NCBI RefSeq assembly: GCF_016903815.1
Contig: NZ_CP069973.1
Direction: 5' to 3' (one strand)
Length of the DNA stretch: 64,000 bases
Origin: Escherichia coli
Lineage (GTDB): Bacteria > Pseudomonadota > Gammaproteobacteria > Enterobacterales > Enterobacteriaceae
This document shows, piece by piece, positions 6,510-54,801 of the stretch; positions within the stretch are counted from its first letter, which is position 1; each line of letters begins with the position of its first letter. The translations under genes and the position numbers were made by a program. A model generated the notes under the pieces. It did not search any database. It was not told the origin of the DNA and saw only the letters and a program-made list of their open reading frames with translations.

Positions 6510-7013
6510 ATGGCAACCGCTGGAATGCTTCTCAAACTCAACTCTCAAATGAACCGCGAGTTTTACGCATCCAATCTCTACCTTCACCTGAGTAACTGGT
6601 GTTCTGAACAGAGTCTGAACGGCACCGCCACTTTCCTTCGCGCCCAGGCACAGAGTAACGTGACCCAAATGATGCGCATGTTTAACTTTATGAAGAGTGT
6701 CGGCGCTACCCCCATCGTTAAAGCCATTGATGTTCCCGGTGAAAAACTGAACTCTCTGGAAGAACTGTTCCAAAAAACGATGGAAGAATACGAGCAACGT
6801 TCAAGCACGCTGGCGCAGTTAGCCGATGAAGCGAAAGAACTGAATGATGATTCAACCGTCAATTTCCTGCGCGATCTGGAAAAAGAACAGCAGCATGATG
6901 GCCTGTTGCTGCAAACCATTCTTGATGAAGTGCGCAGTGCGAAACTTGCGGGTATGTGCCCTGTGCAGACCGACCAACATGTTCTGAATGTCGTGTCGCA
7001 TCAGCTGCATTGA
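6510..7013 (+). CDS. ftnB: Ferritin-like protein FtnB
   Basis: ORF 167 aa [31 protein letters not shown], ferritin fold. Confidence 0.9.
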
Positions 7014-11388: not shown

Positions 11389-11475
11389 TGGTACCCGGAG
11401 CGGGACTTGAACCCGCACAGCGCGAACGCCGAGGGATTTTAAATCCCTTGTGTCTACCGATTCCACCATCCGGGC
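11389..11475 (-). tRNA. leuZ: tRNA-Leu (anticodon UAA)
   Basis: Reverse complement reads GCCCGGATGGTGGAATCGGTAGACACAAGGGATTTAAAATCCC...GGGTACCA, 87 nt. Confidence 0.95.
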
Positions 11476-11487
11476 TCGGGAAGAAAG

Positions 11488-11561
11488 TGGAGGCGCGTTC
11501 CGGAGTCGAACCGGACTAGACGGATTTGCAATCCGCTACATAACCGCTTTGTTAACGCGCC
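11488..11561 (-). tRNA. cysT: tRNA-Cys (anticodon GCA)
   Basis: Reverse complement reads GGCGCGTTAACAAAGCGGTTATGTAGCGGATTGCAAATCCG...CTCCA, 74 nt. Confidence 0.95.
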
Positions 11562-11615
11562 AAATTCTTCAGGCCTTTCAGCCAGACATCCGCTTGACGC
11601 CGATGTCTTTTAAAC

Positions 11616-11691
<76 letters not shown>

Positions 11692-29290: not shown

Positions 29291-29317
29291 ATTCCCGCTG
29301 TGGCCCACAGCGGGAAT
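29291..29317. repeat. Near-perfect 13-bp-arm palindrome between yedF and yedK
   Basis: attcccgctgtgg-c-ccacagcgggaat. Confidence 0.7.
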
Positions 29318-29392
29318 ATCGTTGCCTCTCTATCACATAGATTTAACCCGCCCCCTCTCCTATTCTTTTCAGTGTGACCTCAGGAGGTTTCT

Positions 29393-29819
29393 ATGTGTGG
29401 ACGCTTTGCCCAATCCCAAACGCGTGAAGATTACCTTGCGCTTCTCGCGGAAGATATTGAACGCGATATTCCCTACGATCCCGAACCTATTGGCAGATAC
29501 AACGTCGCGCCGGGAACCAAAGTCCTTCTGCTCAGTGAACGTGATGAACACCTTCATCTGGATCCGGTTTTCTGGGGATATGCTCCCGGATGGTGGGATA
29601 AACCGCCGCTGATTAACGCCCGCGTAGAAACTGCCGCAACCAGTCACATGTTTAAACCGCTCTGGCAACATGGTCGGGCAATCTGTTTTGCCGATGGCTG
29701 GTTTGAGTGGAAAAAAGAAGGCGACAAAAAGCAGCCTTATTTTATCTATCGTGCTGATGGACAAGCTGTTTTTATAGCCGCGATAGGTAGCACACCGTTT
29801 GAGCGTGGTGACGAAGCCG
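29393..29819 (+). pseudogene. yedK: yedK (SRAP / abasic-site-processing protein) truncated after about codon 142
   Basis: ORF 29393-29890 matches YedK MCGRFAQSQTREDYLALLAEDIERDIPYDPEPIGRYNVAPGTK...IGSTPFERGDEA, then diverges into an unrelated 23-codon tail at the IS-remnant junction; full-length YedK is about 222 aa as I recall. Confidence 0.8.
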
Positions 29820-30101
29820 GAAGAAGTTTTTGTAAGCCCGCTCAGGGTCTTTCAGTGACTGTTGCAATGGCTGTGAGGGCGAATCTTTAAGCCATTGCGT
29901 TTCAGTGGCATTTTTCCACTCAACCAACCAGGAAGCCATTTTCCCGTAAGGGATGTATTTATTACCGGCCTCATGATTCTCATTCTGAAGCGCCAGAGCA
30001 CGATTGAAAACGAAACGACATGCGCCTGCGAAGCGCCTCATTTCACGCTCCTGTTGACCACCTGGTCTTAACCGGAATTTGAATGCCTGTAGTCGTTTCA
30101 T
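29820..30101 (-). pseudogene. tnpB: tnpB N-terminal fragment (IS605 OrfB / TnpB-family)
   Basis: Only about 95 N-terminal residues are recognisable; RuvC-like and zinc-finger regions are absent. Confidence 0.7.
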
Positions 30102-30123
30102 GGGCCAAATCATACTTTGGCCT

Positions 30124-30481
30124 ATGAAAAAAGAAACCGATATCCGACGCGGAAGGCATTGTGTTTTCCTGAAGCATGTTCACCTAGTCTTCGTTACTAA
30201 ATACCGACGTCAGATTTTTGACCATGACGCGACAGAAAAACTACGCACTTACTTTTCAAATGTATGTGCTGATTTTGAAGCTGAACGGGTTGAAATGGAT
30301 GGCGGACCAGATCACGTCCATTTGTTAATTAACTATCCTCCCAAACTGGCGATATCCAGTCTGGTAAACAGCCTCAAAGGCGTATCGAGTAGGTTACTGC
30401 GACGAGATCGACCAGATATTGCAGTCAGGTATTACGACAAAGGCGTTTTGTGGAGTCCTGGCTATTTTGTCAGTAGCTGCA
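30124..30481 (+). pseudogene. tnpA: tnpA (IS200-type Y1 transposase), probably C-terminally truncated
   Basis: HUH motif HVHLL and a tyrosine in GYF are present; the C-terminal tail after VSSC is unrelated to the family; truncation is inferred from recalled family sequences. Confidence 0.6.
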
Positions 30482-30804
30482 TCTTAACGTATCAACTAGA
30501 TTTAATAACAACGATATCCGTACCTAACCGGATATCTAATGTCATAAGCATCCCTTTAATTATCCCCTCAACCTCTTGTAACTTTCCCACTCTTGAGCTC
30601 CACATAGTCCAAACGCCGGATGCAAAAAAATCACACGTGCATTTCTGAAATTGTGATGGAGGAAGATAGTATCAATTATATGTGCTTAGAAACGTCCCCG
30701 ATTAGCGCAGAAGTCACCGGATTGTTCAGACTCAAATAGGTTGAGTATGCCGTATTTATTTTCCAAAATAAAAATCGATGCTGTTGCTCCTTCATAAAAT
30801 ACTT

Positions 30805-31602
30805 TTACTCTCTGGACGCTTTTCTTAGCTCTCTTGGTGTTATCTTAAAACGATTATGGAACCTTTCAGTAAAACGAGAAGGACACTTGTAACCATTTTC
30901 CCTGGCAATCTCGCTGATGGGTTTTACTGTCGTTTGTATAGCAGACAACGCATTATTTAACCTCACGTCGTCCAATATACTTTGAAAACTTACTCCCTCG
31001 CTTGCCAGACGGCGATGCAATGTGGAAACAGAAATGTAGAGATATCTCGCTACCTTGTTTGCTGTCCATTTTGTTCCAGGTTCGGATAGCATTAGGTTAT
31101 AACAACGACTTATTAATGATTGTTTACTATCTGATAAAAGTAAACAATTAACATGATGTGCTCCTAATGAAAGTAGAACGCCCATTGCTAAGTGTTCCTG
31201 AATTTGCGTTGAGAAGCCTCGGGAAATAGATGTTTTTAGTTGCTCCCAACAATATATTAACTCGGGGTTCTGAGGTAAGCAGAAACCTGTCGTGTTACGA
31301 ATTTGATCAGTTATCGCATAAAATTTTTGAAACTTTTCAATTAGATCAATGGGATAATAAAGCATTTCTGCAAGATAAAGACCTGCTTCTGGATAATTCG
31401 CAATATAAAATTCATATCCACAGGGAAATAATATTATCTGATTATTATCAACAGTTAGACTATGCGTCTCCCAATTGATAACTTTTTTTCCCTGACGGAT
31501 ACGACATAAAGCTGGCATAAGAGGCTTAACCCTGTGAATCTCATGATGTTTATGCATCCGTATTTCTTCAATCTTTAGGTTAGTCTTATCTTTTGCCAGC
31601 AT
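30805..31602 (-). CDS. ybcM: AraC-family transcriptional regulator (YbcM-like)
   Basis: ORF 265 aa with a C-terminal AraC-type HTH ([40 protein letters not shown]); resembles the YbcM of the K-12 DLP12 prophage as I recall it. Confidence 0.75.
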
Positions 31603-31611
31603 ACTCTTACC

Positions 31612-32163
31612 CTACTTTATCTCATAAACTGGTGTTATCTCAGCGGTTGCAATTTTATTGGCATTAAGCATATAACCAACTAACGCTCCGCTGGAATTAG
31701 AATCCACAGGAATTTTATCAGTTTTTAGAGCCCATACTTTAAACTGGTAATGATGGGGTTTATCTCCTTTGGGAGGACATGCTCCACCAAATCCTGCATA
31801 ACCAAAATCATTTCGGCCTTGAACAGCACCAGTCGGAAGTTTTGTACCATCACGTCTTCCTGCATCAGCGGGCAAATATGTTACAGTTGCTGGAATATTA
31901 GCAACAGTCCAGTGCCACCATCCACTGCCTGTAGGAGCATCTGGATCATACACAGTTACGGCAAAGCTTTTGGTGCCTTCAGGAGCACCAGACCAGGTTA
32001 ATGAGGGCGATGTATTACCACCTTCACACCCAAATCCAGAAAATACATGAGACGTTGTAAGTTGCTCTCCTGTTTTTATTTCATTACTAGTGACCTGAAA
32101 TGCTGCGGCCTGCGCAGAAAATGTTATGAATGCCAATACACTTGAAACGATAAGTTTTTTCAT
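31612..32163 (-). CDS. ybcL: PEBP/UPF0098-family periplasmic protein (YbcL-like)
   Basis: ORF 183 aa with signal peptide MKKLIVSSVLAFITFSAQA and PEBP motifs (DPDAP, GYAGFGGACPPKGDKPHHYQF). Confidence 0.8.
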   Translation of the reverse strand: MKKLIVSSVLAFITFSAQAAAFQVTSNEIKTGEQLTTSHVFSGFGCEGGNTSPSLTWSGAPEGTKSFAVTVYDPDAPTGSGWWHWTVANIPATVTYLPADAGRRDGTKLPTGAVQGRNDFGYAGFGGACPPKGDKPHHYQFKVWALKTDKIPVDSNSSGALVGYMLNANKIATAEITPVYEIK

Positions 32164-32331
32164 AAAAACCTCATTGTTGTGACCTATCGTTATTTTATTT
32201 GATGTGCCTTGATCTCATTATGCATAAAGGCGCAATGATCGCGCAAATGCAATCATAATTATAAAGGTGCCCCGAACATTAGCCATAATATGCACAAATC
32301 AGATTCCTGTTATCTCAAGGATAATTATTTT

Positions 32332-32664
32332 TTAATGCGGTGCACTTCGTGACAACAAGTTAATGACTAACACACCGGCACAAATCAACATCATGCCTAT
32401 GATAGCTGGCAGGTCCAGTCGTTGACCAAAAAATCCCCAGGAAAGCAAACTAATCAGAACGATACCGACGCCTGACCAGATAGCATAAGCAATCCCTGTA
32501 GGTATATAAGCCAGCGTCTGAGCTAATAACCAGAATGATGCACAATAGCAAATAATTGTGCCAACAGAGGGCCATAACCGTGTAAACCCCTCTGAAAACT
32601 TCATTAAGGTTGTACCAATGACCTCTGCAAGTATTGCGCCACCAAGATAAATATAAGGGTTCAT
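32332..32664 (-). CDS. emrE: Small multidrug resistance (SMR) efflux protein EmrE
   Basis: ORF 32332-32844(-); protein from MNPYIYLGGAILAEVIGTTLMKFSEGFTRLWPSVG is 110 aa and near-identical to EmrE, including the conserved Glu14. Confidence 0.88.
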   Translation of the reverse strand: MNPYIYLGGAILAEVIGTTLMKFSEGFTRLWPSVGTIICYCASFWLLAQTLAYIPTGIAYAIWSGVGIVLISLLSWGFFGQRLDLPAIIGMMLICAGVLVINLLSRSAPH

Positions 32665-33007
32665 AGCATATTCTTTCCTGTTCATACTGGAGAGAATTGT
32701 ACTACAGTTTGAACACAACTCACCGTTTTCATCCTGGTGTATGTGTATCCAGGGGGCTCTGGCGTGGCAAGAGATAAAGGCAGGAACAATAATGATCAGA
32801 AGGAACCCCAGGCTAACGAATGAGTTCACTCTTCCTGGGAGCAAAGCGAAGACAAAACATGTTATCGCGTTTACGGATCGTGGATGGCAGAAAACTTTCA
32901 GGATCAGGTATCCATTTTAAACCAGAAATTGAGTGAGTTTGCCCCATCCATGCCCCACGCTGTGGGACCGGATATAATAAACAAGCATAGTCAACAGGTT
33001 ACAAAAC

Positions 33008-33322
33008 CTACACCTGCATGGACATCACTTCCTGATACGCCGCCACCAGCTTATTACGCACCTGAATCCCCATTTGCATAGAAACTGAGGCTTTTTGCAT
33101 ATCGGTCATCACATCGTTTAGCGCCACGCCGGGCTCACCGAGGGTGAATTTTTCTGCCTGCGTGCGGGCGGCTGTTTGTGTATCGCTTATGCGATCGAGC
33201 GCGGCGTGCAGCTGCCCGGCAAAACTAATTGTCGGTTGCGGCAGTGATTCCTGCGCACGCGCACTCATCGCCGTGGTCTGTAACTGGCTGATAACCCCTT
33301 CAATCCCCTGTATCGCTGACAT
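33008..33322 (-). CDS. fliE: Flagellar hook-basal body protein FliE
   Basis: ORF 33008-33352(-); FliE begins [42 protein letters not shown]. Confidence 0.93.
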
Positions 33323-33536
33323 TTTCATCTCCCGGATAATTTCTGGTAGCAAAGCCTACCAGTAAGTCAATAAGACAAAGGCGCTAAATAGCAACAAAAA
33401 AACGGGTTTATTGGCGGATAGAAAAAAACGAAAGCACAAATAATGGGAGCGTCAATTTTTCGAGTTTGCTGACCCGGGAGTGAGTCTTGTTCCACTTTGC
33501 CAATAACGCCGTCCATAATCAGCCACGAGGTGCGCG

Positions 33537-45534: not shown

Positions 45535-45622
45535 AAAATCCCGACCCTGAGGGGGTCGGGATGAAACTTGCTTAAGCAAGAAGCACTTAAAAAATTCGTT
45601 ACACCAGGAAATCTGATGTGTT
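45535..45622 (-). ncRNA. dsrA: Small regulatory RNA DsrA (Hfq-dependent; activates rpoS translation, represses hns)
   Basis: Reverse complement reads AACACATCAGATTTCCTGGTGTAACGAATTTTTTAAGTGCTTCTTGCTTAAGCAAGTTTCATCCCGACCCCCTCAGGGTCGGGATTT, including the terminator hairpin. Confidence 0.92.
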
Positions 45623-53965: not shown

Positions 53966-54694
53966 CCAAAACCGTATCGCGGTAAACATAAAATTCTGGT
54001 GATCGCCGCGGACGAACGTTATTTGCCGACCGATAACGGAAAACTGTTCTCGACCGGTAACCATCCGATTGAAACGTTGCTGCCGTTGTATCATCTCCAT
54101 GCTGCAGGTTTCGAATTCGAAGTGGCGACCATTTCCGGTCTGATGACCAAGTTTGAATACTGGGCTATGCCGCACAAAGATGAAAAAGTAATGCCATTCT
54201 TTGAGCAGCATAAATCGTTGTTCCGCAATCCGAAAAAACTCGCGGATGTTGTCGTCAGCCTCAACGCAGACAGCGAATATGCAGCAATCTTTGTTCCTGG
54301 TGGTCATGGCGCACTTATTAGTTTACCAGAAAGCCAGGACGTGGCTGCTGCTTTGCAGTGGGCAATCAAAAATGACCGTTTTGTTATCTCCCTTTGCCAC
54401 GGCCCGGCGGCTTTTCTGGCGCTTCGCCACGGCGATAACCCACTGAATGGTTATTCCATTTGCGCATTCCCAGACGCCGCAGACAAACAAACGCCAGAGA
54501 TAGGCTATATGCCGGGTCATCTCACCTGGTACTTCGGCGAAGAGCTGAAGAAAATGGGCATGAACATTATTAATGACGACATCACCGGGCGAGTACATAA
54601 GGACCGTAAAGTTCTCACCGGCGACAGTCCTTTCGCAGCGAATGCGTTGGGTAAACTGGCGGCGCAGGAAATGCTGGCAGCTTATGCGGGTTAA
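53966..54694 (+). pseudogene. hchA: hchA (Hsp31 glyoxalase/chaperone) lacking its first ~41 codons and native promoter
   Basis: Frame resumes at PKPYRGKHKILVIAADERYLPTDNGKLFSTGNHPIE... directly after the IS1 right end; the remainder is colinear with HchA to the stop. Confidence 0.85.
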
Positions 54695-54730
54695 TCCCTG
54701 TTACGTATGAATGTAAGCGCATAATCAATC

Positions 54731-54768
54731 GCAGCCACGTTAATACTCACGACGTGGCTGCGTTTTTT
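54731..54768 (+). terminator. Rho-independent terminator after hchA
   Basis: gcagccacgt...acgtggctgc hairpin followed by tttttt. Confidence 0.65.
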
Positions 54769-54801
54769 CATGGTTGATTTATGGCGTACTGAAGCCCTAT
54801 G

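Follow-up and report, generated by a model that had tools for sequence, protein, structure and literature searches.

The 64,000-nucleotide stretch of Escherichia coli chromosome analysed here (contig NZ_CP069973.1, hereafter the window) has the gene order amyA-yedD-yedE-yedF-yedK'-[island]-fliE-fliF, in which a truncated yedK and the flagellar gene fliE are separated by an island that carries three intact genes, emrE, ybcL and ybcM, the origin of which is the subject of this analysis. Positions 29300-33100 are 100% identical to many RefSeq genomes. An earlier reading of the same stretch, made from the sequence only, had described an AT-rich foreign block between the two genes, and its composition is indeed unlike that of its surroundings, with a GC content of 0.40 over 30481-32860 compared with 0.51 and 0.55 in the flanks, and a third-position GC content (GC3) of 0.25-0.40 in ybcM, ybcL and emrE against ~0.6 in yedE and fliE. 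The island is the lowest-GC 2-kb bin in the whole window. Every part of it is annotated in RefSeq (SRAP pseudogene, partial HTH/TnpB gene, tnpA, ybcM, ybcL and emrE), a scan with Rfam at gathering thresholds gave no match inside it, and literature searches found no paper describing the yedK-fliE locus as such. The genes of the locus are already known and annotated, and it is detail that the reconstruction given here adds.

The first of the three genes, emrE (32332..32664, minus strand), encodes an intact multidrug/cation efflux pump belonging to the SMR (small multidrug resistance) family, 110 aa in length. The product scores 240.5 with the EmrE-specific model (cutoff 226) over positions 1-110/110, differs from K-12 EmrE at 2/110 residues and retains the membrane-embedded Glu14, which is found in MNPYIYLGGAILAEV. 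On the same strand ybcL (31612..32163) encodes an intact periplasmic PEBP/RKIP-like protein of 183 aa with a signal peptide, judged by eye from a hydrophobic leader ending AQAAA. It belongs to the YbhB/YbcL family, with an NCBIfam equivalog score of 401.8 (cutoff 277) over 1-183/183, and has 6/183 differences from the K-12 protein. Only 9 bp separate it from ybcM downstream (30805..31602, minus strand), which encodes an intact regulator of 265 aa. Residues ~155-262 of YbcM match AraC-family C-terminal helix-turn-helix models, and because these NCBIfam matches are to other AraC-family regulators and are all below the family cutoffs, the protein was identified by its identity to K-12 YbcM (244/265 identical, 21/265 differences). 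The C-terminal AraC domain together with orthology to the K-12 protein indicates a member of the AraC/XylS family. The assignment of the AraC regulator, PEBP protein and EmrE-type SMR pump to ybcM, ybcL and emrE in the sequence-only reading is thus upheld, at 90-92% DNA identity to the copies in the K-12 prophage DLP12. The ratio of non-synonymous to synonymous substitution (dN/dS) against DLP12 is 0.08 for ybcL, 0.12 for ybcM and 0.02 for emrE; for ybcM against Escherichia albertii it is 0.11, for ybcL it is 0.06-0.08, and for all three genes it lies at 0.02-0.12 against DLP12 and E. albertii. These low values argue that all three cargo genes have been kept functional since they diverged from the DLP12 copies.

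The alignment with DLP12 does not stop at the three genes. Window 31056-32318 aligns to DLP12 up to position 6739 of piece L003 and the homology runs on to 30598 in the next piece, whilst window 32323-32740 aligns from L003 4655-4240 at 91.6% identity. The latter segment takes in the emrE upstream region (32665..32740, minus strand), which is homologous to DLP12 up to the end of ren, renD itself ending at L003 4248. The two aligned segments are 4 bp apart in the window (32319-32322) and 2,083 bp apart in DLP12, where the space between them is filled by ylcJ and ybcK; this site lies in the 168-bp emrE-ybcL intergenic region (32164..32331, minus strand), which includes the ybcL upstream region. 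The absence of ybcK, with about 170 bp between emrE and ybcL, had been noted before and is confirmed by the alignment. Downstream of ybcM is a homologue of ylcH and the start of the nin region (30598..30804, minus strand), 90% identical to DLP12 piece L008 1459-1253; further matches to it are in phage 82 and, in other phages, upstream of NinB. It is followed by the 3' end of a quuD-like gene for the antiterminator Q (30490..30588, minus strand), amounting to the last ~33 codons, which is 83% identical to the DLP12 quuD 3' end (L008 3342-3242) and shows 84% identity to the ends of the genes annotated as antitermination protein Q in the phages ev243, 2G7b, ev207 and ev017, again at the 3' side. 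The junction of the nin start with the Q remnant corresponds to a 1.8-kb deletion compared to DLP12, covering ybcN-ninE-ybcO-rusA-ylcG and most of Q.

Between emrE and fliE lie two pieces of an integrase gene. An internal fragment of a lambdoid tyrosine integrase (32757..32866, plus strand; residues ~240-277/434) matches the integrase of the free phage IdasGreatGrand with a tblastn E of 2e-8 and a blastn identity of 74% over 116 bp. The C-terminal ~43 codons follow (32862..32990, plus strand; tblastn against residues 387-433 of the same integrase, E=3e-19), and these equal a part of the K-12 intG pseudogene that is common to the window. A PHROGs scan of the fragments returned a weak integrase match (E=0.035) and a family of unknown function, and it was the tblastn search against phage genomes and the comparison with IdasGreatGrand that settled the identity left weak by PHROGs. 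The K-12 intG fragment matches integrases in 169 phage records, mostly of lambdoid or Stx phages. A DLP12-type integrase was rejected, as no similarity to DLP12 IntD was found when the same fragment was compared with it by BLASTP. The integrase fragments are oriented toward fliE and emrE away from it, the same geometry as in DLP12, where intD points toward argU.

The likeness to IdasGreatGrand extends into fliE itself. The phage (L010 2530-2696) has 96.4% DNA identity to the window over 167 bp (32862-33027), a stretch that takes in the 3' end of the integrase gene, goes on for 37 bp after its stop codon and ends at 33027, 20 bp inside fliE. Within this lies a 21-bp attachment (att) core, CCTACACCTGCATGGACATCA, at 33007..33027, which is shared with the phage and overlaps the fliE stop codon and the last 6 codons. 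The gene fliE (33008-33322, minus strand) is intact, and the Ser codon at its end is TCC in the window and in the free phage, whereas it is AGC in K-12 (L002 6700-6720). As TCC is common to window and phage, the fliE end in the window strain is therefore best regarded as phage-supplied sequence. Since fliE is on the minus strand, the island touches its 3' end, and the description of the island as lying beside the fliE promoter does not hold, for the promoter sits in the fliE-fliF gap (33323-33536). Nothing else of IdasGreatGrand resembles the island; the window retains only ~80 integrase codons, and the cargo of the island has no relation to the rest of that phage or of the prophage of strain UTAK-1.

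Sister haplotypes have the core a second time, in a copy with 2 mismatches. In MS 200-1 it lies 16 bp after the yedK stop (L004 94-114) and in N1454 just past an inserted copy of the insertion sequence IS609 (L005 5296-5316), in each case exactly where the homology of the sister haplotypes to K-12 ends, whereas in the window the yedK-proximal copy has been lost. From their sequence and placing, the two copies are most simply the two att sites of an old prophage. The MS 200-1 type (L004) has, in order, an intact yedK, att core, an nmpC-essD-like spacer, an nmpC-like porin gene 87% identical to DLP12 nmpC, Q', ybcM-ybcL-emrE, int' and fliE, and in addition a private IS21 insertion in MS 200-1. 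In the N1454 type (L005) yedK is again intact and a complete IS609 sits at its stop, followed by the att core, a porin 5' stub and the module. In N1454 itself emrE (L005 7699-8031) has a premature stop, W31*.

The distribution of these arrangements was counted over 5,426 complete E. coli genomes, the module being scored where ybcM-ybcL-emrE was matched at a coverage of at least 80% and an identity of at least 97.8%. The module was found in 2,620 genomes, the whole stretch 29300-33100 in 2,598, the IS609-containing stretch in 2,084 and the exact yedK/tnpB truncation junction in 1,110. The K-12-type yedL-yedN block was found in 1,176 genomes, and in 393 the site is near-empty, with yedK and fliE ~0.4 kb apart and the integrase end still there. 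The arrangement is therefore not rare. The sequence-only reading had said that it would be undone if this were a common arrangement of ordinary composition, and of these two the first is true and the second is not. In near-identical genomes (at least 99.9% over the module) a single place matches the module, which therefore appears to be their only copy of emrE, ybcL and ybcM.

The K-12 haplotype occupies the same chromosomal site. There the intG pseudogene ("cryptic prophage PR-G", NC_000913.3) lies with yedL-yedN, the cargo being a GNAT acetyltransferase and an EspR-type leucine-rich repeat (LRR) effector pseudogene, and yedK is intact. Homology with the window resumes at 32861 and is limited to ~147 bp, the C-terminal part of the integrase, directly ahead of the fliE stop codon. 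K-12 does have the expected cluster at this site (yedL and the yedN and intG pseudogenes), but a replacement of it by the window island is not shown, and by their sequences the two haplotypes resemble different occupants, or else products of decay, of a single phage attachment site. The suggestion of a recombination hot spot gains support, with the hot spot explained as a phage attB in the fliE 3' end that is still in use and has had other occupants. A full-length integrase of the IdasGreatGrand type lies beside fliE in six complete genomes. At the fliE site UTAK-1 (L015 642-39514) has a P22-like prophage of ~39 kb, complete and with genes for tRNA-Asn and tRNA-Thr, whose presence has displaced an older integrase stub and an LRR-effector gene toward yedK, and O157:H7 strain BB24-1 (L007 2602-6640) has a tandem [GNAT-EspR-int'] x2 (EspR3/EspR4) at the same att site.

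The locus therefore has what would be looked for in a cryptic lambdoid prophage, namely integrase fragments, an att core common to a free phage and a lambdoid gene order, with the second core present only in MS 200-1 and N1454. The order int'-ren'-emrE-ybcL-ybcM-nin'-Q'(-porin) agrees with both DLP12 and the phage PhiR34_1. It is highly probable that a lambdoid prophage once occupied the fliE 3' end, that the yedK-fliE island is what decay has left of it, with emrE, ybcL and ybcM retained, and that IS609 arrived later.

The closest known systems bear on what kind of prophage it was. DLP12 (renD-emrE-ylcJ-ybcK-ybcL-ybcM-ylcH...quuD-nmpC) and the window are alike in genes, order and orientation, at 90-92% DNA identity over emrE and ybcL-ybcM-ylcH' and 83% over the Q 3' end, and the DLP12 porin gene nmpC has its counterpart in the sister haplotypes of the window. 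DLP12 is however located at argU and the window remnant at the fliE 3' end, the integrase fragments are unrelated to IntD, the window is without the 2,083-bp ylcJ-ybcK segment, and the remnant is far more decayed, having no xis-ren, nin, lysis or tail genes. The fliE site, non-IntD integrase, lack of ybcK and identity of ~91% therefore indicate a relative of DLP12 and not a copy of it. PhiR34_1 (as also PhiR68_2 and PhiR70_1) is a viable lambdoid phage that carries the cassette within a full DLP12-type early-right layout including emrE, with the order cII-O-P-ren-emrE-ylcJ-ybcK-ybcL-ybcM-ybcN-ninE-ybcO-rusA-ylcG-Q-porin-S-R-Rz. Its ybcL-ybcM is 89.6% identical to the window, its YbcL and YbcM are identical to those of K-12 and its EmrE is one residue off K-12, and whilst it is a complete phage with ybcK the window holds fragments. 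Many lambda-like phages have emrE alone beside ren.

Outside E. coli the trio is scarcely found. A scan of a set of species-representative genomes with YbcM found only E. coli, E. albertii and one misbinned contig of a metagenome-assembled genome (MAG). The last, SFGN01000137.1 (L011), is a 5.2-kb contig labelled "MAG: Lachnospiraceae bacterium" that is 99.8-100% identical to the MS 200-1-type fliE-emrE-ybcL-ybcM-porin-yedK, and its DNA almost certainly comes from E. coli and was assigned to the Firmicutes MAG by faulty binning. In E. albertii NBRC 107761 (L013, NZ_BBMY01000017.1; 5403-12375) the trio is part of a ~7-kb island that interrupts the sap operon and separates sapC from sapB; it has 82-85% DNA identity, no ybcK and an emrE-ybcL gap of 271 bp. 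Besides the trio this island encodes a P4-like integrase, an OYE-family reductase, a lactonase-like protein and a LysR regulator. As the E. albertii trio lacks ybcK at a deeper divergence, the ybcK-less state is probably the older one, which suggests that ybcK was added in the DLP12/PhiR34 lineage. The ylcJ-ybcK segment of DLP12 (L003 4656-6738, K-12 568655-570737) and of PhiR34_1 forms a clean 2,083-bp indel against both the window and E. albertii. A putative recombinase of 508 aa is encoded in it, and it may have entered the cassette as a small insertion carried by that recombinase. Neither a target duplication nor terminal repeats were seen at its ends.

The setting in E. albertii, which is unrelated and not lambdoid, suggests that the trio is able to move as a unit and in vehicles other than lambdoid ones. 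Together with the low GC of the block, its place there beside a P4-like integrase between sapB and sapC is what could be said for a free-standing, horizontally acquired regulator-plus-effector cassette which, with no phage involved, replaced K-12 yedL-yedN-yedM at a generic hot spot. This explanation is very unlikely, because the window trio has lambdoid remnants on either side of it that stand in the correct order (int fragments, ren end, nin start, Q 3' end), the porin and the two att cores are still found in sister haplotypes, and a phage attB accounts for the hot spot. The same evidence divides the earlier proposal of a horizontally acquired regulator-plus-effector module; the foreign composition it rested on is real, but the block is not an isolated cassette, being the core of a lambdoid prophage with int, ren, nin, Q and att.

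The direction of transfer could also be turned round, with the chromosomal yedK-fliE copy as the original home of the trio and DLP12/PhiR34_1-like phages capturing it by aberrant excision. The module does lie near int and att, where capture of the specialised-transduction type occurs, and the ybcK-less form of the window and E. albertii looks older than the DLP12 form. In the phages, however, the module is between ren and nin, far from att, which is not where aberrant excision would put it, and the chromosomal copy is itself flanked by ren, nin and Q fragments. As many lambda-like phages have only emrE beside ren and the AT-rich composition is foreign to E. coli, an origin in the chromosome is judged highly improbable.

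The other end of the island is where yedK breaks off. The first 142 codons of this SRAP-family gene (29393..29818, plus strand) are in place, and the open frame continues into IS609 antisense sequence to a stop at 29890. Homology to K-12 yedK (~97% identity) ends at 29818, codon 142 of the open reading frame (ORF) from 29393, with the alignment end placed at 29818-29830, and the NCBIfam YedK model is matched over positions 1-143/222 with a score of 324.6, below its cutoff of 349. Thus the window YedK lacks the full-length SRAP domain, 222 aa in K-12; its C-terminal 80 residues are swapped for 23 unrelated residues, and the NCBI annotation pipeline (PGAP) labels the gene a pseudogene without C-terminus. 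The lost part presumably includes the active-site His160 of YedK. On this sequence the window yedK is probably inactive. The sequence-only reading had placed the end of the family match at codon 142, exactly where a TnpB fragment starts on the opposite strand, and this proved correct at 29818/29819. It was also correct in having an IS605-family remnant truncate yedK, the remnant being a piece of IS609 with, in addition, a truncated tnpA which it did not mention.

The IS609 piece (29819-30480) is an internal 662 bp of the element, 95-96% identical to IS609 copies elsewhere in E. coli. It consists of an N-terminal tnpB fragment of ~94-100 residues (29819..30101, minus strand; TnpB model positions 1-92/389) and, divergent from it, codons 1-119 of tnpA (30124..30480, plus strand; model positions 2-112/126). 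Compared to the N1454 type, the window type has undergone two further deletions, one joining yedK codon 142 to tnpB codon ~94 and the other tnpA codon 119 to the porin stub. The first, ~1.1 kb against the full IS609 of N1454, took yedK from codon 143 onward together with the 3' two-thirds of tnpB, and its junction is at a GAAG-type microhomology. The second lies at the 8-bp microhomology GTAGCTGC (30473-30480), and with it went the 3' end of tnpA and the end of the IS, together with the att copy and the spacer. In alignment with N1454 tnpA the ending ...SSCGGAPISVIRQYIEQQ is swapped for unrelated sequence after SSC, so that the HUH motif is retained and the ...RQYIEQQ C-terminal segment of the N1454 copy is gone; the lost C-terminal helix is taken, from IS608/ISDra2 TnpA, to carry the catalytic tyrosine. 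A functional IS200/IS605 element has a complete tnpA, tnpB and both subterminal hairpin ends, and as both ends have been deleted here the remnant cannot move. The chimeric ORF 30124-30648 (plus strand) is annotated by RefSeq/PGAP as an intact 174-aa IS200/IS605 family transposase, WP_001347174.1, the last 55 codons of which are not IS609 and cross the deletion junction, running antisense over the Q-gene and ylcH-like remnants. The IS609 tnpA of N1454 (L005 4791-5222), otherwise full-length, has an internal stop.

With an IS609 remnant exactly between yedK' and the module, it might be asked whether IS609 imported the module or made the island, by transposition or IS-mediated rearrangement. We give this almost no credence, since ~536 genomes, MS 200-1 for example, have the module at yedK-fliE without IS609 (2,620 with the module, of which 2,084 have the IS609 stretch), the complete IS609 of N1454 is a plain insertion, with the yedK stop on one side of it and the att core on the other, and the junctions in the window are plain microhomology deletions within the IS and not at its ends. 

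If the island is, as preferred here, a prophage remnant, its history probably ran as follows. A phage would have integrated by tyrosine-integrase recombination into an attB overlapping the last ~20 bp of fliE, its own copy of the core rebuilding the fliE end. Its early-right region would have had the layout of DLP12/PhiR34_1, ren-emrE-ybcL-ybcM-nin-Q-porin. Internal deletions would then have done away with the greater part of int and the whole stretch from xis to ren, with the nin genes and the greater part of Q, and with all lysis and morphogenesis genes, so leaving the accessory ("moron") genes emrE, ybcL and ybcM as survivors under strong purifying selection. In one sub-lineage IS609 would have inserted at the yedK stop, the prophage porin gene would next have been lost, and finally the two microhomology deletions would have cut IS609 to its immobile 662-bp core. 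These last deletions would also have taken yedK codons 143 onward and the yedK-proximal att copy, giving the arrangement seen in the window.

A number of points weigh against this reconstruction or limit it. The likeness to IdasGreatGrand is limited to the integrase end and att core, with the cargo appearing closer to DLP12/PhiR34_1, and given this split likeness the ancestral phage would be a mosaic, the intact form of which was not found. A synthetic query in which the ends of yedK and fliE were joined found no single-piece match, and hence no unoccupied attB (yedK stop, ~16 bp, fliE stop), in the E. coli genomes, so the pre-integration state is inferred and not observed, and the K-12 haplotype (yedL-yedN) has no core copy beside yedK. 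The junction sequence fits either a deletion of ybcK here or its insertion in DLP12. Finally, what can be said of function is transferred by analogy from orthologues that are 92-98% identical.

EmrE is a well-studied proton-coupled SMR exporter of quaternary cations. Of the native sequence upstream of emrE 77 bp are left in the window, and the phage early-right (pR) promoter is gone. No minus-strand terminator was predicted between fliE and emrE, the region downstream of fliE folding with a z-score of -0.6, and a consensus promoter scan gave fewer promoter-like sites than shuffled sequence. As pR has been lost and no terminator was detected after fliE, transcription begun at the class-2 flagellar promoter of fliE might read through into emrE. 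The K-12 YbcM protein binds DNA upstream of the ybcLM operon, and deletion of ybcM leads to 8-fold worse survival in 60 mM H2O2 (PMC8464067). Because the 155 bp upstream of ybcL are kept at ~91% identity, the window ybcL-ybcM is likely, by analogy, to be the same YbcM-autoregulated operon.

In uropathogenic E. coli (UPEC), YbcL is a periplasmic, lysis-released protein that suppresses neutrophil transepithelial migration, at which K-12 YbcL fails owing to a single residue difference from the UPEC protein (PMC4810123). The window YbcL is of the same ybcL lineage as UPEC YbcL (UTI89 variant; Lau, Loughman and Hunstad). At residue 99 (position 78 of the mature protein; codon at 31867-31869) it has Ala, whereas K-12 has Val and both UPEC and the MS 200-1 type have Thr, this being the only residue at which MS 200-1 YbcL differs from that of the window. 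The critical change is said, from a study of 2012, to be V78T in the mature protein. Ala78 is, by sequence comparison, a third allele at the position separating K-12 (Val) and UPEC-type (Thr) proteins.

The three genes are under strong purifying selection in three unrelated vehicles, that is lambdoid phages, the fliE remnant and the sap island of E. albertii with its P4-type integrase. It is tempting to see in emrE-ybcL-ybcM a self-contained and repeatedly mobilised stress-protection cassette, the three products of which act together; in such a cassette YbcM would sense a signal and may control the PEBP protein and perhaps the pump. This is rather unlikely and is offered as speculation.

EmrE, the paradigm SMR pump, and YbcL, the UPEC immune modulator, are usually described as products of DLP12 genes. 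If the reconstruction is right, in about half of complete E. coli genomes their genes sit in a different and older prophage remnant beside fliE, and the haplotype structure would be relevant to strain comparisons of emrE/ybcL regulation. It would equally be relevant to the treatment of yedK as a universal E. coli gene. The yedK truncation, fixed in ~20% of complete genomes, might amount to a naturally occurring knockout of the HMCES-type abasic-site pathway. On the reconstruction given here the locus would be a textbook case of prophage domestication and tandem accretion at a protein-gene attB and no new kind of system.

Some further features were detected in the window away from the island. 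The DsrA small RNA is at 45536-45622 (minus strand) and a cluster of tRNA-Leu/Cys/Gly genes at 11389-11691 (minus strand). A tRNA-Ser(CGA) gene is found at 60703-60792 (minus strand) and a tRNA-Asn gene at 61784-61859 (plus strand), and the region around these two, 54001-62000, is AT-rich, with a GC content of 0.43-0.45, and may hold another island.

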